The translations under genes and the position numbers were made by a program. Shown in pieces: positions 14,614 through 40,822 of a DNA stretch of 64,000 nt. Each line of letters opens with the position of its first letter. The first letter of the stretch is position 1. Below the pieces are notes generated by a model that did not search any database, had not been told where the DNA came from, and saw nothing but the letters and a program-made list of their open reading frames with translations. This stretch comes from Dolichospermum sp. OTE_75_concoct_329_sub (lineage in GTDB: Bacteria > Cyanobacteriota > Cyanobacteriia > Cyanobacteriales > Nostocaceae): the NCBI GenBank assembly GCA_031376645.1, contig JANMEE010000036.1, positions 8,239 through 72,238 of the forward strand, written 5' to 3'.

Positions 14614-15900
14614 TTAAGCTTCCCCGGTCTGAAGACGCGGGGATTTCTGAAGAGTCCATAAAAGAACTTTCGTAGGCTGACTTAAACAACCTCTACCTAC
14701 TCCAATTAAGTCAAACTTAAATATCGCAGCTACTTTTCTGATTATGTTGACCGCACCGTTGCAATCTGCATTAATTTTTGTGCCGTCCTGAGAACAGTAC
14801 AAACCCCGGCTAATTCTTTTCCCTGATTCTTTCCACCCTTCGGGTTTTGCACCAAATGTAGGTAGAAAATCATTATCTAAGAACGACGTTTTTGAGGTAT
14901 AGGATTCTTCAGTTTCAACAAACTTGATACCGTATTGTTCACACAGTTGAGCAATGCGGTTTTTTAGTTTTGCAGTAGGGATTTGAACAAACTTTTGATT
15001 AGTTTTTGATCCAAGATTTATAGAGTCTTTTTGTCCAACATTCCAGCCAAAAACAACAGTACCAATTTTATGATCTATGCAATGGTTGATTACGATTCTA
15101 GCCGCCTTATTAGTCGCATCTCTCATCTGGCGATTACGCTTTTCTGTAATCGCTGCAAGCCTGTTTGACCAAAAACCCTGCGGTTTATTTTCCTTGATTT
15201 TAGCTACAGATTTGTTATACCACTGGTTGATGCTTTTTAAATGTAGTCCGTCAACTATAAAGGATGTACCAATATTAGAAACACAAGTTAACCAATTATT
15301 TAACCCGTGGTCAATTCCTAATACTTTTGATGCGTCCACCTCGGAGATTTTAATATCTTGTTGGTAAACAAATTCTGCATAAAAGCATCTGTTCCTTGGC
15401 AGGATACGGACTTCTCTTATTGATTTATAGTCCAGATTTGAGGGCATAGGGATATAAAAAGCGTCTATTCCAAACCACGCTTTCACCTTACTACCTAAAG
15501 GGAATCTCAATATTCCGTTCTTTAATTTTAAAGAACGCCCCGTAAAGGTGGCAATAGACATTACACTTTTACAGTAATTTGGTGGTTTAGGTTTTTGAGT
15601 TACCGTACCTTCTTTTATGCCTTTTAAAAGTCCAAAGTAAGACTTAAAAGATTCTGCAACAGTAGTTAAAATCTGTTGTGCTGTGTCCGAGTACAAAGCT
15701 TGATAATGGGCGTTTTTTTGGATAGTTCCCAATTGTTTATGCAGGTCGGCTTTACTTGATATCTTGCCAGTCTTAAAATATAACTGACGAGAATAGTAAA
15801 CACCGCAATTTGTCAGCTTTTTAGCTTCAGTACAAACATATTCCAATATGGCTTTTAAATCCTTATTCGGGCTAATTAATATCTGTTGGCAGCCGTACAC
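14614..15900 (-). CDS. tnpB: RNA-guided endonuclease TnpB
   Basis: RuvC-I VLGIDHG, RuvC-II ETEESYTSK, RuvC-III INADCNGAVNI: D-E-D triad intact. Cyanobacterial SFLD variant lacking CxxC. Start is GTG. Confidence 0.93.
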   Translation of the reverse strand: MYGCQQILISPNKDLKAILEYVCTEAKKLTNCGVYYSRQLYFKTGKISSKADLHKQLGTIQKNAHYQALYSDTAQQILTTVAESFKSYFGLLKGIKEGTVTQKPKPPNYCKSVMSIATFTGRSLKLKNGILRFPLGSKVKAWFGIDAFYIPMPSNLDYKSIREVRILPRNRCFYAEFVYQQDIKISEVDASKVLGIDHGLNNWLTCVSNIGTSFIVDGLHLKSINQWYNKSVAKIKENKPQGFWSNRLAAITEKRNRQMRDATNKAARIVINHCIDHKIGTVVFGWNVGQKDSINLGSKTNQKFVQIPTAKLKNRIAQLCEQYGIKFVETEESYTSKTSFLDNDFLPTFGAKPEGWKESGKRISRGLYCSQDGTKINADCNGAVNIIRKVAAIFKFDLIGVGRGCLSQPTKVLLWTLQKSPRLQTGEA

Positions 15901-16879: not shown

Positions 16880-18985
16880 ATGCGTGCAACTGCTACTATT
16901 TATCAGAATCCTCTACTTCAAAGCTCTGGTTTACCCGAATTTGCGGATATTAAACCGGAGCAGGTCGAACCAGCTTTTAATTATCTGTTAGCAGAACTGG
17001 AGAAGCAATTAGCTGCTTTAGAAGCAAATATACAGCCTACCTGGAGTGGCTTAGTAGAACCTCTGGAAAAATTGACAGAGAGACTCAATTGGAGTTGGGG
17101 GATATTGAATCATTTAATGGGTGTGAAAAATAGTCCAGAACTACGGGTTACTTATGAAAAGGTACAGCCGCGAGTAGTTCAGTTTATGAATATCCTGGGT
17201 CAAAGCAAACCCATTTATAATGCTTTTAAAACAATTCGTAATAGTCCTAACTGGGAAACTTTAGATTCAGCCCAACAGCGAATTATCAAAGCTGCGATTC
17301 GGGACGCAGAATTGTCTGGTGTGGGGTTAGAAGGAAAAGATAGAGAGCGTTTTAATGCTATCCAGATGGAATTAGCCGAACTAGCAACTAGGTTTGCTAA
17401 TCACGTTCTAGATGCGACTAAAGGCTTTATTTTAATCCTCACCATCCAGAATGAAGTTGATGGCTTACCAAGTAGCTTGTTGAGCCTTGCTGCCCAAGTT
17501 GCTCGTGCTGCTGGAGAAGAAAATGCCACACCAGAACATGGACCTTGGCATATTACTTTAGATTTTCCTAGCTATTTCCCGTTCATGCAGCACAGTACCC
17601 GCAGGGATTTGCGTGAAAAACTCTATAAGGCTTATATTACCAGGGCATCTTCTGGAGAATTAGATAATAACCCTTTAATTACACGAATTTTAGAGTTAAG
17701 AAAAGAACTAGCTCAATTAATTGGCTTTGAAACCTTTGCTGAACTGAGTTTGGCTAGTAAGATGGCCAAGGATGTTCCCTCTGTAGAAAAACTGTTAGAA
17801 GAACTCCGTCAAGCTAGTTATAATGCTGCTGTCAAAGATCTAGAAAAACTCAAAGTCTTTGCTAAAGCCAAGGGAGCCGCAGAAGCCGAAAATTTGCAAC
17901 ACTGGGATATTAGCTTTTGGGCTGAACGGCAACGGGAAGAAAAATTTGCCTTTACTGCTGAGGAACTACTTCCCTATTTCCCCCTCCCTCAAGTCCTAGA
18001 TGGGCTATTTGGGCTGGTGAAAAGGCTTTTTGGTGTGAGAGTGACACCCGCTGATGGCCAAGCCCCAATCTGGCATGAGGATGTGCGTTATTTCCAAATT
18101 GCTGATAAATATGGTGAACCCATTGCCTATTTTTACTTAGATGCTTACAGTCGTCCCGCAGAAAAACGCGGTGGCGCTTGGATGGATGCTTGCATTCACC
18201 GTCGCAAAATCACAGAAAATGGTTTAACAACTGTCCGCCTACCCATAGCTTATTTGATTTGTAACCAAACTCCCCCTGTAGATGGACATCCTAGTTTGAT
18301 GGCTTTTGATGAGGTTGAGACATTGTTCCATGAATTTGGACATGGCTTACATCATATGCTGACCAAGGTGGATTATTTGGGAGCGGCAGGTATTAATAAT
18401 GTTGAGTGGGATGCAGTGGAATTACCAAGCCAGTTTATGGAAAATTGGTGTTACGACCGCCAGACCTTGTTTGGTATGGCCAAACATTATGAAACAGGGG
18501 AAGCATTACCGGAGCATTATTACCAAAAATTGTTGGCAGCACGTAATTACATGAGCGGTTCAACTATGTTACGGCAACTGGATTTTAGTAGTGTTGATTT
18601 GGAATTACACTATCGCTATTGTCCTAATAGTCAGGAAACTGTGACAGATGTGCGACATCGGATTGCTAAGTTAACCACTGTGTTATCACCATTACCGGAG
18701 GATGCGTTTTTGTGTGCTTTTGGTCATATTTTTGAAGGGGGTTATGCTGCTGGATACTATGGCTACAAGTGGGCTGAAGTTCTCAGTGCTGATGTTTTTG
18801 CTGCTTTTGAAGAAGCGGGCTTAGAAGATGAAGTGGCAATTCACGCTATTGGCAGACGTTACCGAGATACGGTGTTAGCACTAGGTGGCAGTCAGCATCC
18901 AATGGATGTCTTTAAAACCTTCCGGGGACGAGAACCCAGTACCAAGGCTTTACTTAAGCATAATGGGCTACTGGCTGCCTTGTAA
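16880..18985 (+). CDS. prlC: Oligopeptidase A (M3 family)
   Basis: LFHEFGHGLHH zincin, WDAVELPSQFMENW, KRGGAWM, HIF.GGYAAGYY.YKWAE. Confidence 0.95.
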   Translation: MRATATIYQNPLLQSSGLPEFADIKPEQVEPAFNYLLAELEKQLAALEANIQPTWSGLVEPLEKLTERLNWSWGILNHLMGVKNSPELRVTYEKVQPRVVQFMNILGQSKPIYNAFKTIRNSPNWETLDSAQQRIIKAAIRDAELSGVGLEGKDRERFNAIQMELAELATRFANHVLDATKGFILILTIQNEVDGLPSSLLSLAAQVARAAGEENATPEHGPWHITLDFPSYFPFMQHSTRRDLREKLYKAYITRASSGELDNNPLITRILELRKELAQLIGFETFAELSLASKMAKDVPSVEKLLEELRQASYNAAVKDLEKLKVFAKAKGAAEAENLQHWDISFWAERQREEKFAFTAEELLPYFPLPQVLDGLFGLVKRLFGVRVTPADGQAPIWHEDVRYFQIADKYGEPIAYFYLDAYSRPAEKRGGAWMDACIHRRKITENGLTTVRLPIAYLICNQTPPVDGHPSLMAFDEVETLFHEFGHGLHHMLTKVDYLGAAGINNVEWDAVELPSQFMENWCYDRQTLFGMAKHYETGEALPEHYYQKLLAARNYMSGSTMLRQLDFSSVDLELHYRYCPNSQETVTDVRHRIAKLTTVLSPLPEDAFLCAFGHIFEGGYAAGYYGYKWAEVLSADVFAAFEEAGLEDEVAIHAIGRRYRDTVLALGGSQHPMDVFKTFRGREPSTKALLKHNGLLAAL

Positions 18986-22516: not shown

Positions 22517-22849
22517 AGAAATAGTATTTGTAGGGTGCGTTAGGCAAAGCCGTAACGCACCTTAAACTTGATTAATGGTGCGTTAGCGATAGCGTAACGC
22601 ACCCTACGTATCTGAAAACTGAATCTCCACTGACTAGATTATTACGCCGTTTAAGAATACCTAATTTGTAACGTTTTACAGAATGTTTTTCAGTTAAAAT
22701 AGTTTTAAGAAAGCGCATATAGCGGTTATCGCCCTTGATGCAATACAATCGAGGGCGCAGACCCTGCGCCCCTACAGGCTTTACAATTTGCTGACTGTAT
22801 CTCACTCAAATGCATATCGCTATAATATCACCAGACAGGTAAGTAAGAA

Positions 22850-23473
22850 ATGATATACAGCTTTATACTCCCGGAAGAGACGATTACCAACTTTCAGAAA
22901 AAGATAGAATTCATAGAAAAGTGCCTGAATAATGCTAACCCGGAAGATGAAATATTTGCAGAAATAATTGAGTTGGAGAATAGCGGACTAATATCTCTCA
23001 ATAAACTTATAGAGGAAGTGAAAAATCTACAGTATAAACTTAATAAAATTATTAAGTTTGTTAAGGCATTAAAGGAAAAAGTAGAATTTGATCAATCATC
23101 AGTTATACTTTTTGTTAGATACAATTTTCTGCTTAAAGAAATTTTAGATCAATGCTCTGAGTTTAGTTTGATCCAACACAATAGAGTAGTTTTCTTAGAT
23201 GTAATTTTGTCTGTTCTAGGGGTATATCAGGAAATTAAGAAGGAAATTTCTTCTGTAACCTATTCGCAGGATGAAATATACATTCTTACAGAAACAAGAA
23301 AACACGTAATACAATCAACTATTAAGGCTAGTGTACAATTTAAAGTATTTACTGAAGATTTTTTTAAATCACTAGAATTGGGAGATGATATCACACCTAA
23401 AGAATCGGAAGCCATGTTAACTTCTTTAGCATCTACGGAAAAATGGGATTATGTGTATAGAAAACTTGCATAG
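22850..23473 (+). CDS. Hypothetical helical protein, candidate antitoxin of the overlapping Doc gene
   Basis: 207 aa; stop overlaps the doc TTG start; C-terminal KWDYVYRKLA resembles tails of Doc-associated antitoxins (inference). Confidence 0.6.
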   Translation: MIYSFILPEETITNFQKKIEFIEKCLNNANPEDEIFAEIIELENSGLISLNKLIEEVKNLQYKLNKIIKFVKALKEKVEFDQSSVILFVRYNFLLKEILDQCSEFSLIQHNRVVFLDVILSVLGVYQEIKKEISSVTYSQDEIYILTETRKHVIQSTIKASVQFKVFTEDFFKSLELGDDITPKESEAMLTSLASTEKWDYVYRKLA

Positions 23474-23861
23474 TCCTAAATTTATTGAAAAAGAAGACGT
23501 ATTAAGTATACATAATAAGTAAATTAACCTATATGGTGGTTCATTTGGTATCCGCGATGAAGGTTTATTAGATTCTGCTATTTCTCAACCTCAAGCAACT
23601 TTTGGAGGAGAGTTTTTACATCCGACAATTGTTGAACAAGCAGCAGCTTATTTATTTCATATTTGTAAAAATCATGCTTTTATAGATGGTAATAACCGTA
23701 CTGCTTTTGATGTCATGGTGACATTTTTGAACTTGAATGATTATGAACTGAACATGACACCAGAGGAAGCATATCAATTAACAATGCAGGTTGCTAATGA
23801 TAAAGTGAGTAAGGATGAGTTGATAGAAATATTGAGAGATTGTATTTCAGAACTATTTTAA
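23466..23861 (+). pseudogene. doc: Fic/Doc (death-on-curing) toxin with premature stop
   Basis: Hand translation LHSPKFIEKEDVLSIHNK*INLYGGSFGIRDEGLLDSA...KNHAFIDGNNRTA; in-frame TAA at 23520-23522; the usual GNKR motif reads GNNR. Confidence 0.88.
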
Positions 23862-23911
23862 AATATGAGTTAGGATGTGGTGCGTTACGCTGTCACTAAC
23901 GCACCCTACAA

Positions 23912-27830: not shown

Positions 27831-28823
27831 ATGAAATTCGGCATTGATATTGGTCATAACTGTCCTCCTGATAGTGGTGCAGAAGGAATTAAATCCGAAA
27901 ATAAGTTAACAATGGAAGTTGGTAATAAGGTTATAGCTAAATTAGAAAGTTTAGGACATACAGTAATTGCCTGTAAACCAAATAATGCCAATACAGTAAA
28001 TCAATCTTTAGGTAGTCGTTGCGAAAAAGCCAATAGTAACCGAGTAGATATTTTTGTATCTATTCATTTTAATGCTTTTAATGGACAAGCTAATGGAACA
28101 GAAGTATTTGCTATTAGCGACGCTGGCAAAAAAACCGCTAAATCTGTATTAGATGAAATTGTCAAATTGGGCTTTTTTAATCGTGGTGTCAAAAGTGGCT
28201 CACATCTTTATGTTCTCAAAAGAACAAATATGCCAGGAATTCTCATAGAATGTTGCTTCATTGATTCTGCCAAAGATATGCAAATATATGATGGTGAAGC
28301 AATGGCTAATGCTATAGTTGCTGGTTTAACAGGTAAAGTAGCAAATACGCCTACAAATCCTGCTCCTAATGTGCCTATTCCTGTTCCTGTTCCTAATGGT
28401 TCTGTCAATACTGTTATAGATGAAGAACAGAATAAAGATAAGAGCATTCTGAGACTACAACAGGCTTTAAATCGGTTGAAAATTACTGATAAAAATAATC
28501 AGCCCCTAGTAGAAGATAATGGCATGGGACAAGCTACATCTTCTGCTACAGAAAAATTCCAGAGAATTGTGGGAGTTTTACCAACAGGAATTGCAGGTAA
28601 TACTACCTGGGATGCCCTCAATCAAATATTAGCTAAACGAGTTGTTCAAGGAACTCATGCTAGTGGTGTGATTATCAGATATTTACAATATCGTGTAGGT
28701 GCTAATCCTGATGGGATTTATGGTTCTCAGACAGAAGCAGCAATCAAGAAATTTCAACAGCAAAATGGTTTAACTGCTGATGCAATTGTTGGGGCAATGA
28801 GTTGGCAGAAATTGATAGGTTAG
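27831..28823 (+). CDS. N-acetylmuramoyl-L-alanine amidase (Amidase_3) with C-terminal peptidoglycan-binding domains
   Basis: IDIGH, SIHFNA, GTEV, ILIECCF; Pro-rich linker; LQ..L...DG..G..T..A..KFQ repeats. Confidence 0.9.
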   Translation: MKFGIDIGHNCPPDSGAEGIKSENKLTMEVGNKVIAKLESLGHTVIACKPNNANTVNQSLGSRCEKANSNRVDIFVSIHFNAFNGQANGTEVFAISDAGKKTAKSVLDEIVKLGFFNRGVKSGSHLYVLKRTNMPGILIECCFIDSAKDMQIYDGEAMANAIVAGLTGKVANTPTNPAPNVPIPVPVPNGSVNTVIDEEQNKDKSILRLQQALNRLKITDKNNQPLVEDNGMGQATSSATEKFQRIVGVLPTGIAGNTTWDALNQILAKRVVQGTHASGVIIRYLQYRVGANPDGIYGSQTEAAIKKFQQQNGLTADAIVGAMSWQKLIG

Positions 28824-29149
28824 AATCAATTTTTTAAAGAATATTGTTGGTAAATAGGGGGTATTACTCCCTATTAATATTTTTTATCAGGCTACGCCCC
28901 GCTTCGCTAACTCTGGGCAGGCTAGAAGCCCACCCCACAATAAGTATAATATTCTTGTGGGGTGGGCATCCTGCCCGCCCATATTATATTTAATTATGCC
29001 TACCTACTTAAGAAAAGGGTTTCGTAGCTTTTAATGATAAAACTAAAAAGTAAAAATCCAGTTAGAATTTATACTTTTTGAAATAACCGTAAGAGTTATA
29101 ATAAAGCAAAATTCAAGTTAAAATACTAACTAGAATTCAAGTTAATAAT

Positions 29150-29467
29150 ATGACCCAAATAACATCAAAAAAAGTAGTAAGAAGAGGGAGAATTTTTCCT
29201 GAACTAACTATATCACCAGAAGAATTAGCTAGAAGAGAAGCAGAAGATGAAATATTTTATCAGCGTTGTCTGGCAATCTTTGAGCGTGTACGTCCTGAAT
29301 ATATCGAAAGTCACTATGGTTGGTATATTGCTGTAGAACCAAATAGTAGAGAATATTTAATTGATAAGGATAGGATGCAAGCTCATAAAAGGATGTTAGA
29401 AAAATATTCTCAAGCTAGACACTTTGTTTTTTGTTTGAATGAAACGGGTACAACTGGCACGATATGA
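29150..29467 (+). CDS. Small protein (DUF5678-like), partner of the downstream aspartic protease, copy 1
   Basis: YGWYIAVEPNS.EY motif; ATGA overlap with the protease; near-identical paralog at 30754. Confidence 0.7.
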   Translation: MTQITSKKVVRRGRIFPELTISPEELARREAEDEIFYQRCLAIFERVRPEYIESHYGWYIAVEPNSREYLIDKDRMQAHKRMLEKYSQARHFVFCLNETGTTGTI

Positions 29468-29661
29468 TAGATGTAGATGGTTATTTTGGAGATAATGGGG
29501 AAATATTTTTTGAGATTGAACTAGTCACTAATGATGAGTTAAATCTTCCTGTAGATGCTCTATTTGATACGGGTTTTGCAGGTTTTATGGCTATTAATAC
29601 ACAAGATTTAGATGAATTAGAATGGGTGTATAGTGGTGAGGAAACATTATTCTTTACCTAG
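29464..29661 (+). pseudogene. Truncated clan AA (retropepsin-like) aspartic protease, copy 1
   Basis: ALFDTGF catalytic motif; ends after 65 aa, about half the length of its paralog. Confidence 0.75.
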
Positions 29662-29762
29662 TAATAATTCGTAGGTTTGGTTAAGCGAAGCGCAACCCAA
29701 CGCAATAACATTATTTGGCGATATTTATCTAAGGTATCCATAAACAAATTCTATAAAAACCT

Positions 29763-30077
29763 ATGCCTACTCAAATTAATGCTCCTCCTGCGGTTGATTA
29801 TGCACCTCTGGAATTACAAGGGGAATTAATTGCTATGCAAGAATTAACGATTGAGAAATTATTAACTATTGCTCAAAGTCAAATTACAGAAAGTCAGCAA
29901 GAATTACATTTTCAACTTTTAGAAAAAAATCCAAATAATCAATTAAGTGAATCTGATAGGTTATTGTTGAAATCGTTGCGGGTGAGTGCTGATTATTTAA
30001 TGTTAAAAAAAGCTTATGCATAAGCACTTTTAAAGTGGCAAGGGTTTTCTCTTCCAGATTTTGAGCAATTAGTATAA
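29763..30077 (+). pseudogene. Small hypothetical (antitoxin-like) gene with premature stop
   Basis: ...KKAYA*ALLKWQGFSLPDFEQLV: coding-like frame continues past TAA 30021-30023 to a stop at 30075-30077. Confidence 0.6.
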
Positions 30078-30092
30078 TACCAGTATCATCTT

Positions 30093-30674
30093 TTACTTAC
30101 TTAAATTTGTAGGAAAAGTAACATCTTCATAAACATCAGTGAGAGAACAAGAAAAATTCACACTGGTTAATTCTAATTGTTGATTTCCTCTATAACTATA
30201 AAGAACCCATCTTCCTTCAGAATTGCGCCGAAAACAATCAATTCTTTGACGATTTTGACTAACTAAAACATATTCTTGTAAAGTGTCTAATTCTTGATAA
30301 TCACTAAATTTATCACCTCTATCTAAGGCTTCTGTAGAAGGTGATAAAACTTCAATGATTAAACTCGGATATCGTTTAAAATATTCAAATTGTGTATCTC
30401 TTGAATCGCAAGTTACCATAATATCAGGATAATAGAAAATATCTAGAGATTCAATTCTCGCTTTCATATCAGCAACGTAAATACGGCATCCTGTACCACG
30501 AATATGATTTCTTAAAAGGGCAACTAAATTAGCAGTAATTGTTACATGAGCATCACTAGCACCAGCCATTGCGTAAATTTGCCCTTGGATATATTCATGT
30601 TTAATAGGGCTAGATTTTTCAGCTTCTAAATATTCTTCTGGGGAAAGATAGGAGTGAGATTTATTAAGAGTCAT
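30093..30674 (-). CDS. Uma2-family endonuclease-like protein
   Basis: KHEYIQG, YYPDIMV, IIEVLSPST...DRGDKF..Y...TLQEYVLV. Confidence 0.9.
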   Translation of the reverse strand: MTLNKSHSYLSPEEYLEAEKSSPIKHEYIQGQIYAMAGASDAHVTITANLVALLRNHIRGTGCRIYVADMKARIESLDIFYYPDIMVTCDSRDTQFEYFKRYPSLIIEVLSPSTEALDRGDKFSDYQELDTLQEYVLVSQNRQRIDCFRRNSEGRWVLYSYRGNQQLELTSVNFSCSLTDVYEDVTFPTNLSK

Positions 30675-30753
30675 ATCAGAAAATTATTATATTGATTATT
30701 TAGATGATATCATATATTGTGTTAGAATGTTATTTATAATTGAAGTTAAAAAT

Positions 30754-31071
30754 ATGACTCACATAACATCAAAAAAAGTAGTAAGAAGAGGAAGAATTTT
30801 TCCTGAATTGACTATATCACCAGAAGAATTAGCTAGACGAGAAGCGGAAGATGAAATATTTTATCAGCATTGTCGAGCAATTTTTGAGCGTGTTCGTCAT
30901 CAATATATTGAAAGTCATTATGGTTGGTATATTGCCATAGAACCAAATAGTGGGGAATACTTTCTTGATCAAGATAATATTCAAGCTCATAAAAAAGTCC
31001 TTGAGAAATACCCAAAGGCTAAGAATTATGTGTTTTGCTTAAACGAAACAGGAACGACTGGGAGAATATGA
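30754..31071 (+). CDS. Small protein (DUF5678-like), copy 2
   Basis: 105-aa paralog of 29150-29467 (MTHITSKKVVRRGRIFPEL...); ATG at 30754 lies inside the tracked ORF 30727. Confidence 0.7.
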   Translation: MTHITSKKVVRRGRIFPELTISPEELARREAEDEIFYQHCRAIFERVRHQYIESHYGWYIAIEPNSGEYFLDQDNIQAHKKVLEKYPKAKNYVFCLNETGTTGRI

Positions 31072-31431
31072 TTGAGGGAAATTTTGGTAGGGAGGGGCAG
31101 CTATTTTTTGAGCTTGATTTTGATTACTGCTGATGGATTAAATCTACCTGTGGATGCGATGTTAGATACAGGATTTACCAAGTTTATGGCAATTAATACT
31201 CAAGATTTGGATGGACTTGATTGGGTTTTTCTTGGTAATGAACATAAGCAAACAGCACAAGGTGAATCAAGGTTTAATATCTATTTAGGTAAGGTAATAT
31301 TGGATGGTAAGGAATATGAAATTCCTGTTGATATGGGGGATAATATTACAGAAGTTTTATTAGGTTCTGAGTGGTTGAAGTTTTTGCGTTTGGTGGTGGA
31401 TTTTCCAAAAAGTATTTTGACTTTGGGATAA
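31068..31431 (+). pseudogene. Clan AA aspartic protease, copy 2, +1 frameshift
   Basis: ATG 31068 gives MIEGNFGREGQLFFELD; one extra T in the run at 31118-31121; the frame resumes LITADGLNLPVDAMLDTGF...EVLLGSEWL. Confidence 0.8.
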
Positions 31432-31507
31432 TTTTTTATTTCGCGCAAAGTAAGAAAAGTAAGAAAAGTATCATAAAATATATACAGGATAAATAGCAGA
31501 ATAAATC

Positions 31508-31747
31508 ATGAATGCTTACAAGACTTATATCACGATTGAAGACCCGAAGCAGGTAGTTTTATCTGATTTACCTTTTCAAGTTGGACAGCGTGTGGAGATT
31601 ATTGTTTTAGCTGAAGATAACCCGCAAGTTACGATGAGTAATAAATTGCGGAATTTATTTGATAAAACTCAGGCTATTCCTGGTGTGGAAGAGGTTACAG
31701 AGGAGGATATAGCCGCAGAAATTGAAGCTTATCGGCGTGGGAAATGA
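31508..31747 (+). CDS. Putative antitoxin of a PIN-family TA module
   Basis: 79 aa, C-terminal EEDIAAEIEAYRR, ATGA overlap with the PIN gene. Confidence 0.7.
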   Translation: MNAYKTYITIEDPKQVVLSDLPFQVGQRVEIIVLAEDNPQVTMSNKLRNLFDKTQAIPGVEEVTEEDIAAEIEAYRRGK

Positions 31748-31968
31748 AAGTTATTATTGATACTAATGTTTTAGTTTCTGCTGTTCTCAAGGGGAGAGAA
31801 CCAAGGGATGTTATTCAATTTGTTGTGGATAGTCCTAATTGTGATTGGGTTGTTTCTGAGGAAATTTTAGCAGAGTATCAGGATGTGTTAAGTCGGAAGA
31901 AGTTTAAGTTAACTGATGAAGTCAGAAAAGAATGGTTATTAGAGGATAGGTTTTTTGTGTCATGGTAG
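31744..31968 (+). pseudogene. 3'-truncated PIN-domain toxin
   Basis: MKVIIDTNVLVSA...SEEILAEY; stops at 74 aa versus 138 aa for the intact paralog-type gene at 38718. Confidence 0.8.
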
Positions 31969-32017
31969 TTTATTAAGTATTAATAGATGAAAATCCTGTA
32001 AATCTTGATTCAGAAAT

Positions 32018-32350
32018 CTAAACCGATGCAAAACCTGTAAACTGTCTGACATAAGGTGATCTAAAACCTAAAACAATATCCGTTTTCGGTACACCTAACT
32101 CTACTAATTGATGAGGAATTCCTTCTTCGGTAAAATCCCTTTCAATCCAGATTTTACCATCTTTAATACTAATATGAATGGGACAACCATAAATTCTATT
32201 TTCGTCTTTCCATCCTGTATACAACAGTAAATAAATATCCCGTTCAGTATCAAAAACAATTTCTGTATTTTCTAAATCTTCCTCTGCTTGGTCTTTTGCA
32301 TATTTAGAGATAATATCTTTTACTATCTCTTGATAATTTAAGGTTTCCAT
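32018..32350 (-). CDS. xisI: XisI family protein
   Basis: IVFDTERD.YLL...GW...RIYG..IH..IKDGKIWIE.D.TEEGI...L...GVPKTDIVLGF. Confidence 0.9.
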   Translation of the reverse strand: METLNYQEIVKDIISKYAKDQAEEDLENTEIVFDTERDIYLLLYTGWKDENRIYGCPIHISIKDGKIWIERDFTEEGIPHQLVELGVPKTDIVLGFRSPYVRQFTGFASV

Positions 32351-32757
32351 AACACTATTTCTTCCTTATTAATGTCAAAAACTAATAATTTAATTTCATA
32401 AGTTTGTAAAACAGTTTGAATGAAACTATCAGTAAAAAACTCTTGATATATGTCTTGAGATATAGCTAAATATAATATTCTTTCAGAGTCTTGTTGTCCT
32501 AATGCTATCCTATAATTTAAAAATTGACCAATAGCTGTATGAAATTAAGAAATTGCTGAAAGTCCTAGAAAACTTTTTACTTCCACCGCTATCTTTTGAT
32601 GATCTTTCTCAGCGCCAATTAACTTTTCTGCTCCTAAATCTATCCTAATTTTAACTAATGCGGTTAGGCGCAAATATAAAGGATCATCAGTAATTTGCCA
32701 ATTCTCCTTTTCTAAGGCTATTTTAACTGTATTGTGAAAAATATCTTTCGCTGACAT
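32338..32757 (-). pseudogene. xisH: XisH family protein with nonsense mutation
   Basis: MSAKDIFH...KIAVEVKSFLGLSAIS*FHTAIGQFLNY...; TAA at 32547-32545 where the intact paralog has E; frame continues to a stop overlapping xisI. Confidence 0.88.
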
Positions 32758-32930
32758 AAAAATTTAAAGTGATATTTTATCTTAGATAATACCTTATTTT
32801 TTAAGTAATGGCTCTGTATTATATTTGTAAGTAGGGTTAAGCTGCATCGCAACCCAACGCAATCAAATTATAAAAATGTTGGGTTATGCCTACGGTACGC
32901 TACGCGAACGTTTCTCAACCCAACCTACAA

Positions 32931-33260
32931 CTAACCCACTGCAAAACCAGTAAATTCCCTCACAAAAGGAGATTTAAAACCTAAAACTATATCGGTTTTT
33001 GGTACTCCTAATTCTACCAGTTCACTAGCTACACCTTCTTCAGTTAAATCTCGCTGAATCCAGATTTTTCCATCTCTAATATCTACATGAATAACTGTAC
33101 CATAAGCCCTTTCGTTATTCTGCCATCCTACATGAACTACTAAATAACTATTTCTTTCACAATCAAAAATTAACTCCTTTTCTGTTCCTTCTGATCTATG
33201 ATTTTCGGTATGTCTTGCTAACACGGTTTTTACTAATTCAGGATAATTCATTCCTTCCAT
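32931..33260 (-). CDS. xisI: XisI family protein
   Basis: Same motifs; start overlaps the xisH stop. Confidence 0.9.
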   Translation of the reverse strand: MEGMNYPELVKTVLARHTENHRSEGTEKELIFDCERNSYLVVHVGWQNNERAYGTVIHVDIRDGKIWIQRDLTEEGVASELVELGVPKTDIVLGFKSPFVREFTGFAVG

Positions 33261-33664
33261 AAAACAATCTCCTGTTTAATAATTTCAAAAATCAATAATT
33301 TTAATTTATGTTCAGCAATTATTTCTTGAATAAAGGGAATTAGAAAAAACTCTTTGTATATGTCATTACCAATTGCTAAATATAAGATACGGTTGGGTTC
33401 TTTTTTTCTTAAAACAGTACGATAATTAAGTGTTTGTCCTAAAGCTGTGTGAAATTCAGTAACTTCAGATTGTCCTAAAAAAGATTTTACCTCAACTGCT
33501 ATTTTTTGACCTTCTTTTTCTGCTCCTAAAAGTCTTTCTGCTCCTAAGTCAATTCTAAAGTCAAGACCATCTACTGTAAATGATAAAGGATCATTAGTAA
33601 TTAACCAATTATCTTTTTCTAAAGCTAACCTAACTGCATTGTGAAAAAAGTCTTTTGCTGACAT
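33248..33664 (-). CDS. xisH: XisH family protein (PD-(D/E)XK-like), intact
   Basis: MSAKDFFH, IDLGAE, KIAVEVKSF, FHTALGQ.LNY, RILYLAI. Confidence 0.92.
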   Translation of the reverse strand: MSAKDFFHNAVRLALEKDNWLITNDPLSFTVDGLDFRIDLGAERLLGAEKEGQKIAVEVKSFLGQSEVTEFHTALGQTLNYRTVLRKKEPNRILYLAIGNDIYKEFFLIPFIQEIIAEHKLKLLIFEIIKQEIVLWKE

Positions 33665-33793
33665 ACAAACTTACAATAACACCCTCCACCCCATTATATA
33701 GGAATCCGGTTTGATTCTTGAAAAGATACGTAGGGTGTGTTAGCGATCGCGTAACGCACCAAACTCTTGATAATGGTACGTTACGTATTTTAT
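33582..33793. repeat. About 212-bp direct repeat, copy A (copy B at 36871-37082)
   Basis: Near-identical at offset 3289; contains the xisH 5' end, its upstream region and the left half of a family-C repeat. Confidence 0.9.
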
Positions 33794-34094
33794 GCTGACG
33801 TACTCTACAATGATACAATACATGGTGGTGTATTAATTTGGGAATTTACAAAAAGCCCTGGCGATTAGAAATTGCGGCTATACAAACGAAGTCCACCTTC
33901 GTGGACTAAAAATAAGATTTTTGAACCCGCGAAGGCGGGTTTTGTCTGTGTAGATGTGAATTATATTCGCCTAGTTATAAAGACTTTTTGTTAAATTTTA
34001 TTAATAACTGATAATTTAAGGATCTATGTTATAATGTGTTTTCTATAAATTAATTCATGTCTTTAAATAAAACATAATCTTGATTAAATAAATA

Positions 34095-35597
34095 ATGAAA
34101 TCTATTGTTAAACAATTAAGTCTATTTGAATTAGAATTGACAAAAACAAATCCTGAAAAAATAGTATTACCAAAAGGCTATAAAGGATTAGCTGCTTTTC
34201 ATAAATATTGGGGTAAAAAACCAATTGAATGTTTAGCATTTTTAATTGAAAACTTAACAGAAAAAGGTGATATTGTTTTAGATCCATTTTTAGGATCAGG
34301 TTTAGTTGCTCGTGAAGCAGTAATTAGAGAAAGACGATTTATAGGTATTGACATTAATCCTGTAGCTGTAGAATTATCGAATTTATTAGTAAATTTACCA
34401 AATCCAGATATTTTAAAAAAAGCCCTTGATGAATTAGAAATAAGTGTTAAATCAGAAATATATAAAACTTACTTACTAGAAGATGGAAAATTTGCAACTC
34501 ACTATTTATGGCATGGAAATGAACTAAATTCAGTTTGGCATTTATCGCCAAGAAGAAATGAAAGTGATAAAAGGATACCAACTAATTATGACTATCAAGT
34601 ATTTAAACAATTTGAGGGATACGAACCTAAAATACCTCGACCAATTAAGTTATTTCAAAATAGCCGTATAAATACAAATGATACTTTAACACTAAAAGAT
34701 TTATTTACTGGTCGTGCGTTACATAATATAGATTTGTTGCTTAATGCAATTCACAAACAACCAGATTCTATTAAATCTGCATTATTGCTATCATTAACTG
34801 CTGCTTCTGGTCAAATGTCTAAGATGGTTTTTGCAATTACAGGAAGAGGTAAAACAAAATCTGAACCAACAAATAAAATAGAAGTTGGTAGTTGGGTGAT
34901 AGGATATTGGCGACCAACGTTACATTTTGAAATTAATGTGTGGAATTGTTTTATTAAACGTGCAAATAGTTTACTAAAATCTATTCAAGAAGATGAATTT
35001 AAAAAAGGTTATTGTGTATCTAAAAGATTAACAGATGTTATTGACAATAAAGCAGATGTAGCAATTTTCCAAGGTGATAATCGAAAAGTTCTTAATAATT
35101 GCCCTGATGAAACTATTTCTTTGATATTAACTGATCCACCACATAGTGATAGGATTCCATACTTAGAATTGAGTGAAATGTGGAATTGTTTAATAGATAA
35201 AGAGCCGGATTTTTCTCAAGAAATTGTAGTTTCTAATGCTCGTAGTCGAGGGAAGAATAAAAACAATTATGTGAATGAAATGATGGAATTTATGCAAACT
35301 GCTACTCGTATCCTGAAACCTAGTGGAATATTAGCTCTATTTTTTAATGCGAGAGATGCTGATAGTTGGAAGTTCTTAAAAGAGGTAATACCATCTGATA
35401 ATCAATTACAATTTCGTGGATTATTTCCTATGAATTATTCAGCTAATTCAGTAATTCAAGATAGCAGAAAGGGAGGTTTAAAAAATGATTTCGTTTTAAT
35501 CTATCAAAAACCTGGAAATGAAGATAATATAAAATTGATATTATTAGAAAAATTACCTAATTGGTCTAAAGAAATACCTAATATTCACTCAAAATAA
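34095..35597 (+). CDS. Amino (N6-A/N4-C) DNA methyltransferase, alpha-type motif order
   Basis: HKYWGKKP; motif I VLDPFLGSG near the N-terminus; motif IV LILTDPPH near residue 345. Confidence 0.85.
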   Translation: MKSIVKQLSLFELELTKTNPEKIVLPKGYKGLAAFHKYWGKKPIECLAFLIENLTEKGDIVLDPFLGSGLVAREAVIRERRFIGIDINPVAVELSNLLVNLPNPDILKKALDELEISVKSEIYKTYLLEDGKFATHYLWHGNELNSVWHLSPRRNESDKRIPTNYDYQVFKQFEGYEPKIPRPIKLFQNSRINTNDTLTLKDLFTGRALHNIDLLLNAIHKQPDSIKSALLLSLTAASGQMSKMVFAITGRGKTKSEPTNKIEVGSWVIGYWRPTLHFEINVWNCFIKRANSLLKSIQEDEFKKGYCVSKRLTDVIDNKADVAIFQGDNRKVLNNCPDETISLILTDPPHSDRIPYLELSEMWNCLIDKEPDFSQEIVVSNARSRGKNKNNYVNEMMEFMQTATRILKPSGILALFFNARDADSWKFLKEVIPSDNQLQFRGLFPMNYSANSVIQDSRKGGLKNDFVLIYQKPGNEDNIKLILLEKLPNWSKEIPNIHSK

Positions 35598-35617
35598 TCT
35601 TAAATCTGCAAAATAAA

Positions 35618-36712
35618 ATGAGTTACACCTTTTCTCAACTTTCTCGGCTCTATGATGAAAATAAATTTTTTGAATTAACATCATCTCCTGAAGGATTATA
35701 TTTTTTAAAATTACGTTCTTTGGCTCGAAAAGATTATTATTTGCATTTATTTCAAAAAGCACAAATATCTTCAGATAATTTAGGAGTAAAGCAGTACCTT
35801 GAAACACTTTTTAAATCTAATATTTCTTTAGAAACTATTCATGATTCTATTAATCAAATATATGAAATACAAAGAGAAGAACGTCGCATACATGAGCAAT
35901 ATTTACTAGCAGAATTATATAAACTAAGAGTTTTTGACTGGGGTGGTATCCATCAAAATGATATTAATAAGTATCTAGTTGATAACTACATCAAAAAGAT
36001 TACTAATTATGATAATTTAATAGAAAAAGTAGAAAATGAAATTTTACATAGTTTAAAAGGTTTTGTTTTGTGTTCTTGGTATAATAATTGGACATCAATT
36101 ATTATTGAGGATATTTTTAAAGATCATCAGCGTGTTTTACCAACTGTGGGGCTAATTAAACAAGTTGATTTTTTTATTAATGATATACCTTTTGATCTCA
36201 AGGTAACTTATTTTCCAAAAGGTTTTATGGAAAATGAGAGAAGGAAAAGAAAACTAATAATTAAGGAATTATCAGAGTTAAAGAAGACAGCCAAAATATT
36301 TAATCTTCCTTTTGATCAAAATCGTCCTGATGATGAACTATTGATTGATTTGATTACAGCTTTTACTGAAAGTTCCCAGCAGAATGTAAAAGATTTTTAT
36401 GATAATTTTGTGAAAATTAGAAGAGATATTATCAACGACATATTAAAACAACCTCGTGAACTTTTGCGCTGGTTGTATGAAAATCAAGGTTCTCAAAGAT
36501 TTGATGCAAGTAATAGGTTATTTTTAGTTCTTGTGGATACTAATTCTTTAGAAGATAGTTGGAAGCTAAAAAGAGATTATAGTTTGTTAAAAAATAAAAT
36601 TGATGAATATCTAAATACACGCTCTTTTAATAAGGATAAACTGTTATTAAGTTGGAATTTTAATAACAATGAATATCACAGTTATGCTGATGTTTTGTTT
36701 ATTATGAAGTAA
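35618..36712 (+). CDS. Putative Type II restriction endonuclease (PD-(D/E)XK)
   Basis: Directly downstream of the MTase; VDFFINDIPFDLKVT fits a D-x(n)-D-x-K nuclease motif; very AT-rich. Specificity unknown. Confidence 0.6.
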   Translation: MSYTFSQLSRLYDENKFFELTSSPEGLYFLKLRSLARKDYYLHLFQKAQISSDNLGVKQYLETLFKSNISLETIHDSINQIYEIQREERRIHEQYLLAELYKLRVFDWGGIHQNDINKYLVDNYIKKITNYDNLIEKVENEILHSLKGFVLCSWYNNWTSIIIEDIFKDHQRVLPTVGLIKQVDFFINDIPFDLKVTYFPKGFMENERRKRKLIIKELSELKKTAKIFNLPFDQNRPDDELLIDLITAFTESSQQNVKDFYDNFVKIRRDIINDILKQPRELLRWLYENQGSQRFDASNRLFLVLVDTNSLEDSWKLKRDYSLLKNKIDEYLNTRSFNKDKLLLSWNFNNNEYHSYADVLFIMK

Positions 36713-36819
36713 CCACTTCCTCTAATATACCTCTAAGATACAAGGTTGGGTTAAGCTGCAACTCAACGCAATAAAATTATCAAAATGTTGGGTTTCGTTC
36801 CTCAACCCAACCTACATAA

Positions 36820-36953
36820 CATAACTACCTTATAATTCAAAAACTGACCAATAGCTCAGTAAGTTCAAAAGATAAAGGATCATGAGTAATTAACCAATTA
36901 TCTTTTTCTAAAGCTAACCTAACTGCATTATGAAAAAAGTCTTTTGCTGACAT
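36820..36953 (-). pseudogene. xisH: XisH remnant with internal deletion
   Basis: MSAKDFFHNAVRLALEKDNWLITHDPLSFELTE joined to AIGQFLNYKVV-like sequence, then repeat DNA. Confidence 0.75.
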
Positions 36954-37082
36954 ACAAACTTACAATAACACCCTCCATCCCATTATATAGGAATCCGGTT
37001 TGATTCTTGAAAAGATACGTAGGGTGTGTTAGCGATCGCGTAACGCACCAAAATCTTGACAATGGTACGTTACTTATTTTAT
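36871..37082. repeat. About 212-bp direct repeat, copy B
   Basis: See 33582-33793. Confidence 0.9.
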
Positions 37083-37106
37083 ACTAACTTAACCTACAAT
37101 ACATAG

Positions 37107-38327
37107 TGTTTTTCTATTGAGATTGTTAGCAAACTGCTACAAATTCCCGAATCTGTAATTGAAGAAATAGAAGATGGTCAAATTGAAAAATACTGGCAAG
37201 AGATTTACGGAATGCTTTGCATTTATGGAAAGCCAGTTCATGAAATATTTGAAGACTTTTTTGAAAATAATCAAAATTATGAGATACATGATGTACCCAA
37301 AACTAAATATGCTAATTATGTCATAGACTGCATTAAGCTTATTAAGCAGTTACATGGTAGACCTATTCATTTGTCAAGTCTGCCTTTAGCAAGAGGTAAA
37401 CAAAACGGTAAGTCAATCAATTTTTCAGATGAAAATTCTGGACAGAAGCAAAGGTCTGTTAAAAAAGCTGTACCGACTGTCTTAGAAACTAGAGCGCACA
37501 ATTTAATTCATAAAAATAATCTTTTTAAACTACCTATTAATGTCTATCAACTAGCAACTAATCTAGGCATAAAGGTATTTTTTGAAAGTTTACCTAATGA
37601 TTTATATGACTTAAGGGGATTCTGTTATAAAGAGGATAATTTTAGTATTATAGGTATAAATCGGAAACATCATACTGTACTTCAAAGATTTACTATAGCT
37701 CATGAACTACATCATCTAATATATGACTTAAATGATAATAGATTTTTGTGTGGTACACATAATGAAAATAAAATCATAGAATTAAATGCAGAAAATTTTG
37801 CGGCTGAACTCTTAATGCCAAAACCCCTAGTACAAAAGCTAGTTTCTCATCCACCGAATATTCATTATTTAACTGTTAATCTAGTAGCAAAGCATTTTGG
37901 AGTTAGTTACGAAGCAGCAGCAATTAGACTTGAGAAGTTTAATTTAATTCCTAGCGCATCTCAAGTTTGCAAACAATCATATAGACGTGAAGATAAACAA
38001 AAAACGGAATTTTTACTTAAGAATAAACTTAAATATCTAATTGCAGTATTTGGTCTAGAAACTGGTATTGAAGAAATACAAATTGATAGAAAAATTAGTA
38101 ACCATTCAGTTTGTGGTGCTGTTATAAATGACCATACTCACACAGTTTGTTGGCATTGTGGTTTGGAAATTCAAGAACCTAAACATAATGAAATTTATTT
38201 AAAGAATCCATATCGACAAGATGCGGTAAATATATCTTCTAATAAGAAAATTTCTTCTTTCGAGCAGAAAAAAGGTGAAAAAACCGATAATGAACATGAA
38301 CAATTATCACTCAATTTAAGAATTTAA
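37107..38327 (+). CDS. ImmA/IrrE-family metallopeptidase with 5'-truncated XRE-type HTH and C-terminal Zn-ribbon-like motif
   Basis: RFTIAHELHH (HExxH), ELNAENFAAELLMP, VAKHFGVSYEAAAIRL. Frame is open upstream of ATG 37212 to a TAG at 37104 and encodes SIEIVSKLLQIPESVIEEIEDG; C-terminal H..CG...CWHCG. Confidence 0.85.
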   Translation, partial: CFSIEIVSKLLQIPESVIEEIEDGQIEKYWQEIYGMLCIYGKPVHEIFEDFFENNQNYEIHDVPKTKYANYVIDCIKLIKQLHGRPIHLSSLPLARGKQNGKSINFSDENSGQKQRSVKKAVPTVLETRAHNLIHKNNLFKLPINVYQLATNLGIKVFFESLPNDLYDLRGFCYKEDNFSIIGINRKHHTVLQRFTIAHELHHLIYDLNDNRFLCGTHNENKIIELNAENFAAELLMPKPLVQKLVSHPPNIHYLTVNLVAKHFGVSYEAAAIRLEKFNLIPSASQVCKQSYRREDKQKTEFLLKNKLKYLIAVFGLETGIEEIQIDRKISNHSVCGAVINDHTHTVCWHCGLEIQEPKHNEIYLKNPYRQDAVNISSNKKISSFEQKKGEKTDNEHEQLSLNLRI

Positions 38328-38360
38328 CTAAACTTGATAATTACTATTGTGATTTGTAAT

Positions 38361-38690
38361 CTAAACCGATGCAAAATCAGTAAACTGTCTCATATAAAGT
38401 GGCTTAAAACCTAAAACAATATCCGTTTTTGGTACTCCCAATTCTAGCAACTCACTAGCTACCCCTTCCTCTGTAAAATATCTCTGAATCCAAATTTTTC
38501 CATCTCTAATATCTACATGAATAATTGTCCCATAAGCCCTTTCATTATTTTCCCATCCTACATGAACTACTAAATAACTATTTCTTTCACAATCAAAAAT
38601 TAACTCCTTTTCTGTGACTTTGGAAGCATGATTTTCTGTATGTCTTCCTAATACAGTTTTTACCAATTCAGGATAATTCATTCCTTCCAT
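38361..38690 (-). CDS. xisI: Orphan XisI family protein
   Basis: Close paralog of 32931-33260; no xisH upstream. Confidence 0.9.
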   Translation of the reverse strand: MEGMNYPELVKTVLGRHTENHASKVTEKELIFDCERNSYLVVHVGWENNERAYGTIIHVDIRDGKIWIQRYFTEEGVASELLELGVPKTDIVLGFKPLYMRQFTDFASV

Positions 38691-38717
38691 AAAATAATTA
38701 AATAATATAAGTATAAT

Positions 38718-39134
38718 TTAATCAAGGTTGAGAAAGTCTCTCGGAGTAATGATCTGATTTTGGTATTCGACTAGAGTTTTAAGTGATAAAAGGTCTTGAT
38801 CTCCTGTGATCAAAAATTCTGCGTTGGCATCTTTTGCTAGTTCTAAAAATTTGTTATCATCTGGATCTCTACAGATATCTATTTGAGTCTTAATTTCTAT
38901 AAATTGGCTGTATTTTTTGACAACTTTTAAAAAATCTTGTCGTTCTTCATCTGAGATATATTTATTGAATTTAGGTTTATAAATTCGTGTTTTTAATTCT
39001 TGATAAGTTTCCTCACTTTGAGCTATTTTAAATTGTTTATAGGCTTTATCTAGGGCTTTACTGGCTGTTCCATCTGGACTGAGTGCAGCACTAAGTAAAA
39101 CATTGGTATCAATGACAATTAGTTTATGATTCAT
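38718..39134 (-). CDS. PIN-domain toxin (putative TA system, intact)
   Basis: VIDTNVLLSA, SEETYQEL, CRDPDDNKFLELA, ITGDQDLL. Confidence 0.9.
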   Translation of the reverse strand: MNHKLIVIDTNVLLSAALSPDGTASKALDKAYKQFKIAQSEETYQELKTRIYKPKFNKYISDEERQDFLKVVKKYSQFIEIKTQIDICRDPDDNKFLELAKDANAEFLITGDQDLLSLKTLVEYQNQIITPRDFLNLD

Positions 39135-39351
39135 CAGCTAATAATTCTTCTAAAATTTCTTCTGTAAGTCCTTTTGCTTGAGCGTTTTTACCAATTCTAT
39201 CAAAAACAGTAAGTAAATCCTCTTCTTGATTTTTGGGTGAGTTTATCTTTATTTGTTGGATAATTTCTTCTTGTTCTTGTGCTGGAAGTTGTAACACAAT
39301 ATTAAGAATTTGCTCAAAGCTTAGAGGAAGTGGATATGTTTTTTGTGTCAT
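39124..39351 (-). CDS. Putative antitoxin of the PIN toxin
   Basis: Likely start MTQKTYPL at 39351 (the tracked extension to 39501 is repeat DNA); C-terminal KGLTEEILEELLADES; overlaps the toxin start. Confidence 0.7.
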   Translation of the reverse strand: MTQKTYPLPLSFEQILNIVLQLPAQEQEEIIQQIKINSPKNQEEDLLTVFDRIGKNAQAKGLTEEILEELLADES

Positions 39352-39535
39352 AGTAATTTTAGCGATCTCGTTTGCGTAGCGTGTCGTAGGCATAGAGTAG
39401 ACGCAAAGGAACAAAGAAAAAATGCAAATACCTTGCATCCTATTATATCCTCTCTCCGTGCCTCTGCGCCTCTGCGTGAGAAAAAAAAGGGATAAGCCCA
39501 AAAGCCTATCCCCAAAAAATCAACTAAAAGATCAA

Positions 39536-40822
<1,287 letters not shown>

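Follow-up and report, generated by a model that had tools for sequence, protein, structure and literature searches.

Why should one member of a gene pair be broken repeatedly whilst its partner is kept? The question is raised by an island of small cassettes in Dolichospermum sp. OTE_75_concoct_329_sub, which was studied within a 64,000 nucleotide (nt) stretch of contig JANMEE010000036.1 (positions 8,239 to 72,238, hereafter the window), and it concerns above all XisH and XisI, of which the island carries several copies. These genes are annotated by the thousands, in cyanobacteria and Beggiatoaceae, as excision factors of one heterocyst-specific element, and most copies are nowhere near a recombinase. 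A preliminary description of this DNA had proposed that in the island, and in a Doc pair outside it, the enzyme of each pair is preferentially broken, and that this marks XisH and the aspartic proteases of the island as toxic components of unrecognised two-gene systems. Comparison across genomes shows that XisH is indeed lost more often than XisI, and XisH-XisI is probably a new member of the toxin-antitoxin (TA) kind, pending experiment.

The genes concerned are listed below with their positions in the window and their strand; P and R denote the partner and the aspartic protease of one kind of pair, aa stands for amino acids, and alleles are compared chiefly with those of Dolichospermum LEGE 00240 (locus L007) and Dolichospermum sp. 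ST_sed8 (locus L003).

28824..39535, no strand: strain-variable island of 10.7 kb, between an amidase gene (27831-28823) and ahcY (39536-40810)
22850..23473, plus: 207-aa conserved partner of Doc, intact, outside the island; beside Doc in 15 related loci, no family match
23451..23861, plus: Doc toxin pseudogene, outside the island, Gln to TAA at 23520-23522 (Gln in thirteen relatives); TIGR01550 64.7 bits for the part after the stop, against a cut-off of 38.65
29150..29467, plus: P1, 105-aa partner of the protease, intact; no Pfam family, predicted fold without PDB match
29464..29661, plus: R1, retropepsin-like aspartic protease, cut after about codon 58 of 120 (about 58 homologous codons remain); homology to the intact 120-aa gene of LEGE 00240 ends at 29644
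29645..29714, no strand: short palindromic dispersed repeat at the R1 breakpoint; further copies at 32823-32885 and 36743-36819
30754..31071, plus: P2, partner protein, intact; 81% identity to P1
31035..31431, plus: R2, aspartic protease with a +1 frameshift, a single extra T in the T run 31118-31121 (T4 against T3 in the alignment with ST_sed8, where the gene is intact at 120 aa); TIGR03698 9.6e-9
31508..31747, plus: antitoxin of PINa, 79 aa, intact; weak RelN-type antitoxin match, kept beside the PIN gene in ST_sed8 and L040
31744..31968, plus: PINa, PIN-domain toxin with about 65 homologous codons left, compared with some 130 in homologues of full length; PF13470 2.6e-10 over profile positions 1-65 of 115 only
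31941..31963, minus: stub of a second VapB-type antitoxin, its first 8 or so codons (MTQKTYPL); 87% match to the antitoxin start at 39329-39359
32018..32350, minus: XisI_1, intact; PF08869 3e-40, 99% identity to the LEGE 00240 copy
32338..32757, minus: XisH_1 pseudogene with one in-frame TAA at codon 71 (32545-32547), Glu in LEGE 00240, whose orthologue is intact (139 aa, 98.6% identity)
32931..33260, minus: XisI_2, intact; PF08869 3e-40, PDB 2NLV 3.6e-28
33248..33664, minus: XisH_2, intact; PF08814 1.4e-53 over profile positions 1-134 of 134, PDB 2INB 5e-48
36825..36953, minus: XisH stub, 29 N-terminal codons (36867-36953) and a fragment AIGQFLNYK (36825-36856); its own XisI gone
38361..38690, minus: XisI_3, intact orphan without trace of an XisH; PF08869 2.5e-37, 27 nt downstream of PINb
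38718..39134, minus: PINb, PIN toxin, intact; PF13470 5e-20, full length
39124..39351, minus: VapB-type antitoxin of PINb, intact; assigned by a weak VapB15 match and position

The lesions reported for both proteases, one of two PIN toxins, two of three XisH genes and Doc are all present in the window sequence, and they were borne out by relatives and by Logan contigs, assembled from a public run of freshwater sediment (X1, about 10x), which show 0 differences from the window over 28954-33093 and over 22800-23908, the Doc site included. As this independent assembly is identical and intact alleles are found in ST_sed8 and LEGE 00240, the lesions are real and recent. Two exceptions to the pattern that had already been pointed out, a nonsense codon in the gene at 29763 (Tyr87 to TAA) and the antitoxin stub at 31963, are there as well. 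One assignment had to be given up, namely the pairing of the XisH stub with XisI_3 to make three XisI for three XisH, because XisI_3 comes immediately after the PINb gene and, on the minus strand, is located upstream of the stub. XisH_2 and XisI_2, whose genes overlap by 13 nt, are the sole complete XisH-XisI pair of the island.

Five pairs of the window, Doc included, have exactly one broken member (R1, R2, PINa, XisH_1 and Doc), and all five are broken on the enzyme side (0.5^5 = 0.03). A bias drawn from the window alone is suggestive only, and the count was therefore taken across genomes.

XisH is lost more often than XisI

For each of the two genes the 80 best-scoring loci were taken with that gene as anchor, from one genome per species. 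A tblastn search with 29 diverse queries sorted every copy into one of five classes (intact, stop, frameshift, truncation, or cut off at a contig end), and duplicates were removed. Beside 76 intact anchor XisI genes the partner XisH was intact in 48 cases, broken in 22 and absent in 6, so that 28 of 76 are without an intact XisH, against 2 of 65 intact anchor XisH genes without an intact XisI (63 intact, 2 broken, 0 absent). This is a bias of about tenfold (Fisher p = 3e-7), and partner loss, which the preliminary description had proposed to count across genomes, is therefore asymmetric for these two genes. Among 195 unique pair units there are 97 with both genes intact, 42 with XisH broken and XisI intact, 16 orphan XisI and 10 with both broken, compared with 4 in which XisI is broken and XisH intact and no orphan XisH at all. 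The bias holds for point lesions only (21 in XisH and 4 in XisI, p = 0.003 against the 138:109 expected from length) and for the orthologue clusters affected, defined by at least 95% XisI DNA identity (23 for XisH and 3 for XisI, p = 4e-4).

The stops and frameshifts of XisH fall at many different codons and are therefore independent events, and different lesions occur inside one orthologue cluster, which makes these losses parallel. Recoding was considered and rejected, as the in-frame stops do not recur at one codon. Operon position is not the cause of the bias, which goes with the enzyme: XisH is encoded first (upstream) in its pair, whereas PIN, R and Doc are encoded second. Purifying selection on XisI persists with or without XisH, the ratio of non-synonymous to synonymous substitution rates (dN/dS) being 0.14-0.18 in either case. 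Single-stop XisH pseudogenes look as constrained as intact genes and are therefore young, and dN/dS could not date the losses.

Gene counts published for giant sulfur bacteria are 4 xisH to 7 xisI and 22 xisH to 32 xisI (PMC10756260), and among cyanobacterial plasmid records XisH is found on 40 and XisI on 49. A systematic alternative partner for orphan XisI, such as a PIN toxin, was also sought and rejected: there is one orthologous case of VapBC followed by XisI, in Anabaena UHCC 0204 (L088), and the other contexts are heterogeneous.

XisH-XisI as a candidate toxin-antitoxin pair

XisH matches PF08814 over its full length, with D39, E58 and K60 invariant, and belongs to the PD-(D/E)XK superfamily (PMC3424549); its structural matches are PDB 2INB and 2OKF. 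The three XisI copies of the window match PF08869 over their full length (2.5e-37 to 3e-40) and the XisI model matches 2NLV with a template modelling (TM) score of 0.77. There is no XisH-XisI complex among the PDB matches to either protein. In other genomes the distance between the two genes is -6 to -9 nt, and more than 470 matching stretches were found in species-representative genomes, patchy in distribution, in multiple copies and with several per island. The pair is common in genera without heterocysts or the fdxN element, and on plasmids.

The open literature searched gives the two proteins only an accessory part in the XisF-dependent excision of the fdxN element, with roles that the accounts in PMC4874684 and PMC4853749 describe as unclear. 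Ramaswamy et al. 1997 found that both XisH and XisI are needed for fdxN excision (as cited in PMC4874684), and Hwang et al. suggested XisI as a directionality factor (as cited in PMC4853749). No paper treating XisH-XisI as a TA system was found in the open literature searched.

In its architecture XisH-XisI resembles the type II TA systems in which the toxin gene comes first (HigBA, HicAB and MqsRA). The genes are small, co-directional and overlapping with the enzyme gene upstream, they are multi-copy and patchy in islands and on plasmids, and XisH pseudogenes and orphan partner genes are frequent. This candidate pair differs from those systems in that XisH has a PD-(D/E)XK DNA-nuclease fold and is not an RNase or translation inhibitor, and XisI has a fold of its own with no recognisable DNA-binding antitoxin domain. 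Its families (PF08814 and PF08869) and gene order are identical to those of XisF-XisH-XisI in the fdxN element of Anabaena PCC 7120; unlike that element, the island has several pairs, no gene for an XisF-type serine recombinase and no interrupted gene, and contains one dead pair, one XisH stub and one orphan XisI. Taken together, the overlap, the multi-copy, patchy and plasmid-borne occurrence, the lack of a linked recombinase and the rarity of an intact XisH without an intact XisI give the pair the signature of a toxin and its neutraliser. We infer from these features that XisH is toxic, that XisI neutralises it and that a like logic may apply to the protease pair.

The best explanation of the whole, and one that we hold to be rather probable, is a shuffled cassette island in which the enzyme partner breaks because it is harmful, XisH being a nuclease toxin restrained by XisI. 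Cassettes would be shuffled, with truncation of genes at the junctions, by illegitimate recombination that would often take place at the short palindromic repeat, and point mutations would then disable further genes. An active nuclease or protease would be harmful whenever the neutralising partner is limiting; loss-of-function alleles of the enzyme would be tolerated or favoured and loss of the partner alone would be lethal or costly. XisH would be the toxic component, a PD-(D/E)XK endonuclease, and XisI, from an open reading frame (ORF) sharing 13 nt with the end of xisH, would neutralise or restrain it. The pair would thus behave as a mobile cassette of an addiction or defence type, with XisF-dependent fdxN excision as one specialised use. 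A wider proposal, to which we give a little under an even chance, is that cyanobacteria and giant sulfur bacteria have in XisH-XisI a large, hitherto unrecognised family of TA or addiction (possibly defence) systems, with XisH as toxin, XisI as a neutraliser of novel fold and the fdxN role as a domesticated special case, and that P-R is possibly a second such pair in which the protease is restrained by the 105-aa P.

Asymmetric loss shows XisH to be deleterious or dispensable, and does not show it to be a toxin as such, and it would be equally expected if XisI were selected for a function of its own, as a directionality factor or DNA-binding regulator for serine recombinases located elsewhere, with XisH a dispensable accessory nuclease under relaxed selection and no TA system involved; loss alone cannot separate the two. 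We consider such an independent role for XisI unlikely whilst recognising that it has much to draw on, in that the accounts in PMC4853749 and PMC4874684 tie both proteins to XisF-dependent excision, the 16 orphans counted are all XisI and none is XisH, XisI dN/dS is the same after XisH loss and the fold of XisI is unlike that of any known antitoxin. It has more difficulty with an island that contains no recombinase, with the abundance of pairs on plasmids and in genera lacking heterocysts and the fdxN element, and with the presence of several pairs per island beside classical TA cassettes. Furthermore, mere dispensability leaves unexplained why 63 of 65 intact XisH have an intact XisI, and the repeated independent inactivation inside one orthologue cluster is likewise not what it would predict.

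That the island is simply junk eroded by rearrangement and by truncation at cassette edges, with the bias in the window a coincidence of small numbers, appears improbable. R1, PINa and the XisH stub are cut at junctions, two of them beside the dispersed repeat, the window p is only about 0.03, and there are hits in genes that are not enzymes (the 29763 gene, the VapB stub, P1 in ST_sed8 and an XisI remnant in LEGE 00240). Neutral decay of this kind would not account for XisH and XisI counts far from the 56:44 split of gene length, point lesions included, for a bias that tracks the enzyme in either gene order, or for XisH_1, R2 and Doc, whose lesions are point mutations and not edge effects. 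Less probable still, by far, is an origin of the lesions in faulty sequencing or assembly of a metagenome-assembled genome. In favour of such errors are a depth of no more than about 10x and the position of the R2 lesion within a short run of T; on the other hand the X1 contigs are identical to the window over both regions that they cover, three lesions are substitutions to TAA, the breakpoints of PINa and R1 are shared with or related to those of ST_sed8, an independent genome, and elsewhere in the window housekeeping genes have long ORFs without breaks.

Several further observations weigh against our preferred explanation, in which XisH is a toxin restrained by XisI. The only functional data on the pair are those on fdxN excision, and a fold search with XisI returned only XisI structures and no known antitoxin relatives. 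Half of the XisH lesions are 5' truncations and may be due to rearrangement at the borders of cassettes and not to selection. Loci entered the anchored samples by their high scores and are not a random census, related species in them are partly non-independent, and frameshifts in draft and metagenome-assembled genomes can be errors, though errors would hit both genes alike. Partners decay too: P1, P2, the PINa antitoxin and the three XisI genes are intact in the window, as had been stated, but this is not a rule, since one VapB is reduced to a stub, P1 is truncated in ST_sed8 and LEGE 00240 has a broken XisI remnant. For the protease pair, the P-anchored and R-anchored samples described below come from different collections, a fold search with P against the PDB gave no relative (best E 0.99) and no known antitoxin kin, and in relatives within the ADA clade (Dolichospermum/Anabaena/Aphanizomenon) nearly all protease genes in pairs beside XisH-XisI are intact.

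The bias nevertheless provides a cheap and concrete hypothesis, that XisH is a toxic nuclease and XisI its antidote. If this is true, a widespread gene pair would be re-annotated, a family of DNA-nuclease toxins would join the TA repertoire, and fdxN excision could be read as the work of a recombinase that recruited a TA pair.

The protease, PIN and Doc pairs

P and R are found throughout the Nostocales at a uniform length (245 clusters of P at 105 aa and 159 of R at 120 aa), and their genes overlap by ATGA. D33-T34-G35 of R is invariant in 14 diverse members, the D-T-G being kept in both window copies, and there is a G-S-x-W-L motif near the C-terminus. Matches to curated families are below their cut-offs, at 35.5 bits for TIGR03698 (cut-off 57.35) and about 20 bits for PF13975 (cut-off 28.2; E about 1e-3) in 14 of 14 members, and R has no sequence match in the PDB; its prediction as a retropepsin-like aspartic protease rests on these sub-threshold matches together with the invariant D-T-G. 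In length and motifs (about 120 aa, D-T-G and G-S-x-W-L) R is thus like the single-domain aspartic proteases of clan AA (TIGR03698/PF13975), from which it differs in scoring under the curated cut-offs and in that its gene is always preceded by the overlapping gene for the 105-aa protein. The label of P as DUF5678-like did not survive, since 0 of 14 members match Pfam DUF5678 at E <= 1 and only two UniRef homologues are so named. The model of P, a confident one (predicted local distance difference test, pLDDT, 83), combines a long helix and a small sheet with a basic N-terminus that is disordered. To our knowledge no function has been described for the P-R pair.

Anchored on P in genomes (n=78), R was intact in 63 cases, broken in 11 and absent in 4, and anchored on R in metagenomes (n=70), P was intact in 65 and broken in 5, 2 of them borderline. 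The resulting 15 of 78 against 5 of 70 gives a Fisher p of 0.05, with 11 against 3 point lesions, a bias that is of the same sign as that of XisH and XisI and is weak. The claim that XisH and the proteases are both toxic members is therefore supported by a strong asymmetry of loss in the case of XisH and by a weak one in the case of the proteases. Were it to hold, P-R would represent a less common type of module, one whose harmful member is a protease, and the evidence for this is still thin. It was observed that P-R pairs are repeatedly convergent to XisH-XisI pairs in ADA-clade genomes (L007, L082, L086, L108, L110, L193 and the window at 29150-33664), and the two cassettes tend to travel together.

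The two PIN cassettes (31508-31968 and 38718-39351) are VapBC-like, ordinary members of their families in which the truncated member is a PIN toxin, and the upstream neighbours of the PIN genes are genes of 75-79 aa with weak antitoxin matches. A full-length homologue of PINa in L040 matches PINb residues 6-122. The second cassette departs from the usual VapBC arrangement in being followed by an XisI gene. This VapB-PIN-XisI order (38361-39351), with 27 nt from PIN to XisI, is common to the window and Anabaena UHCC 0204.

The Doc pair is like Phd-Doc in that a partner gene precedes and overlaps that of the Fic-fold Doc and in that it is the toxin that is broken; it is unlike it in that the partner is 207 aa long with no match to the Phd family and in its conserved chromosomal position by chlH. 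The 207-aa gene and its overlapping Doc were seen just downstream of chlH in many Nostocales (the window at 22850-23861, L002, L013, L014, L017, L021-L023, L030, L035, L039, L047, L049, L052 and L053). Doc is broken in 3 of 15 lineages, by a stop in the window and in L052 and by a cut to 37 aa in L053, and the partner is intact in 15 of 15. With its conserved C-terminus (…SLASTKKWDYVYRKLA) the 207-aa protein may be an unusual Doc antitoxin.

Cassette junctions and other genes of the island

The chlH and amidase proteins of the window are 85-96% identical to homologues in Dolichospermum, Anabaena and Cuspidothrix, which places its origin in the ADA clade of the Nostocales. The island has a G+C content of 27-35%, compared with 38-45% in the flanks, is flanked by intact genes and interrupts no gene. 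In 78 of 80 related genomes none of its genes occur within 10 kb downstream of the amidase gene, and part of it is common to LEGE 00240 and ST_sed8. Genes were assigned from an ORF listing and profile searches (Pfam, NCBIfam and PADLOC); all island ORFs of at least 110 aa could be assigned, and there is no recombinase gene among them, nor any serine recombinase of the xisF type. The order is P1-R1, a 103-codon gene, Uma2 (minus), P2-R2, antitoxin-PINa, the VapB stub (minus), XisI_1/XisH_1, XisI_2/XisH_2, a methyltransferase, a 364-aa gene, the XisH stub, an M78 peptidase and XisI_3/PINb/VapB (minus). The island itself is an ordinary variable TA and defence patchwork of small, mostly two-gene cassettes.

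Decay of the toxin first, as had been proposed, is not supported for all of the lesions. In XisH_1, R2 and Doc the enzyme gene carries a point mutation; R1, PINa and the XisH stub are truncations by rearrangement at cassette or repeat junctions. In R1 the 70 nt after 29644 are the dispersed repeat, which is also found elsewhere in LEGE 00240, and the block 29645-32013 has taken the place of the 3' half of the gene, which that strain has kept; in ST_sed8 what was left of R1 has been deleted. PINa runs up against the opening codons of a VapB gene on the opposite strand, and its breakpoint at 31938 is also that of ST_sed8. The XisH stub represents the 5' end of a gene copy with 95% identity to xisH_2 and is part of a 234-nt direct repeat, 95% identical (33578-33811 and 36867-37100), that comprises the xisH 5' end and its upstream region and flanks the methyltransferase/364-aa cassette, as if this cassette had replaced most of a third xisHI pair.

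The dispersed repeat itself is about 70 nt long with an internal palindrome (AACCCAAC…GTTGGGTT) and lies at cassette junctions, with copies in LEGE 00240 at 15364-15418 and 16951-17055. In the metagenome contigs of run X1 its word depth is about 500, compared with 10 for the flanks (some 50-fold), and its appearance is that of a miniature element, mobile or recombinogenic, that aids the shuffling of cassettes. In L166 and L113 there is a chimeric ORF made of the first 26 codons of XisI and the last 47 of a VapB of the 39124-39351 type, joined apparently via a shared EEDL microhomology.

The remaining genes of the island are the following.

29763..30074, plus: 103-aa gene with Tyr87 to TAA (30021-30023); in ST_sed8 a Tyr and an open frame of 103 codons
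30093..30674, minus: Uma2-family putative endonuclease (PD-(D/E)XK-type), intact; PF05685 3e-40, PADLOC candidate family PDC-S03 3e-30
34095..35597, plus: type II DNA methyltransferase, intact; PF01555, PADLOC MTase_II 3e-43
35618..36712, plus: 364-aa protein, presumed cognate restriction enzyme from its position only
37212..38327, plus: M78 (ImmA/IrrE-type) metallopeptidase, intact; PF06114 7.5e-21, PADLOC capP 4e-26 and RmrA

A run of PADLOC, which had been suggested as a check, was thus productive for Uma2 (PDC-S03), the methyltransferase (MTase_II) and the peptidase (capP/RmrA), but it has no model for XisH or XisI and gave nothing for P. Pfam, NCBIfam and PADLOC had no match for P, the 29763 gene, the 364-aa protein or the 207-aa partner of Doc. 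The 364-aa protein also lacks a match in the PDB and, if it is a restriction enzyme, would represent an undescribed family. The M78 peptidase has no separate helix-turn-helix partner gene alongside it and has CxxC…CxxC-like cysteines in its C-terminal third. The 103-aa gene is convergent to the Uma2 gene and is intact in ST_sed8 and L103, and a second copy of it begins at the contig end in ST_sed8 (L003 5537-5616).

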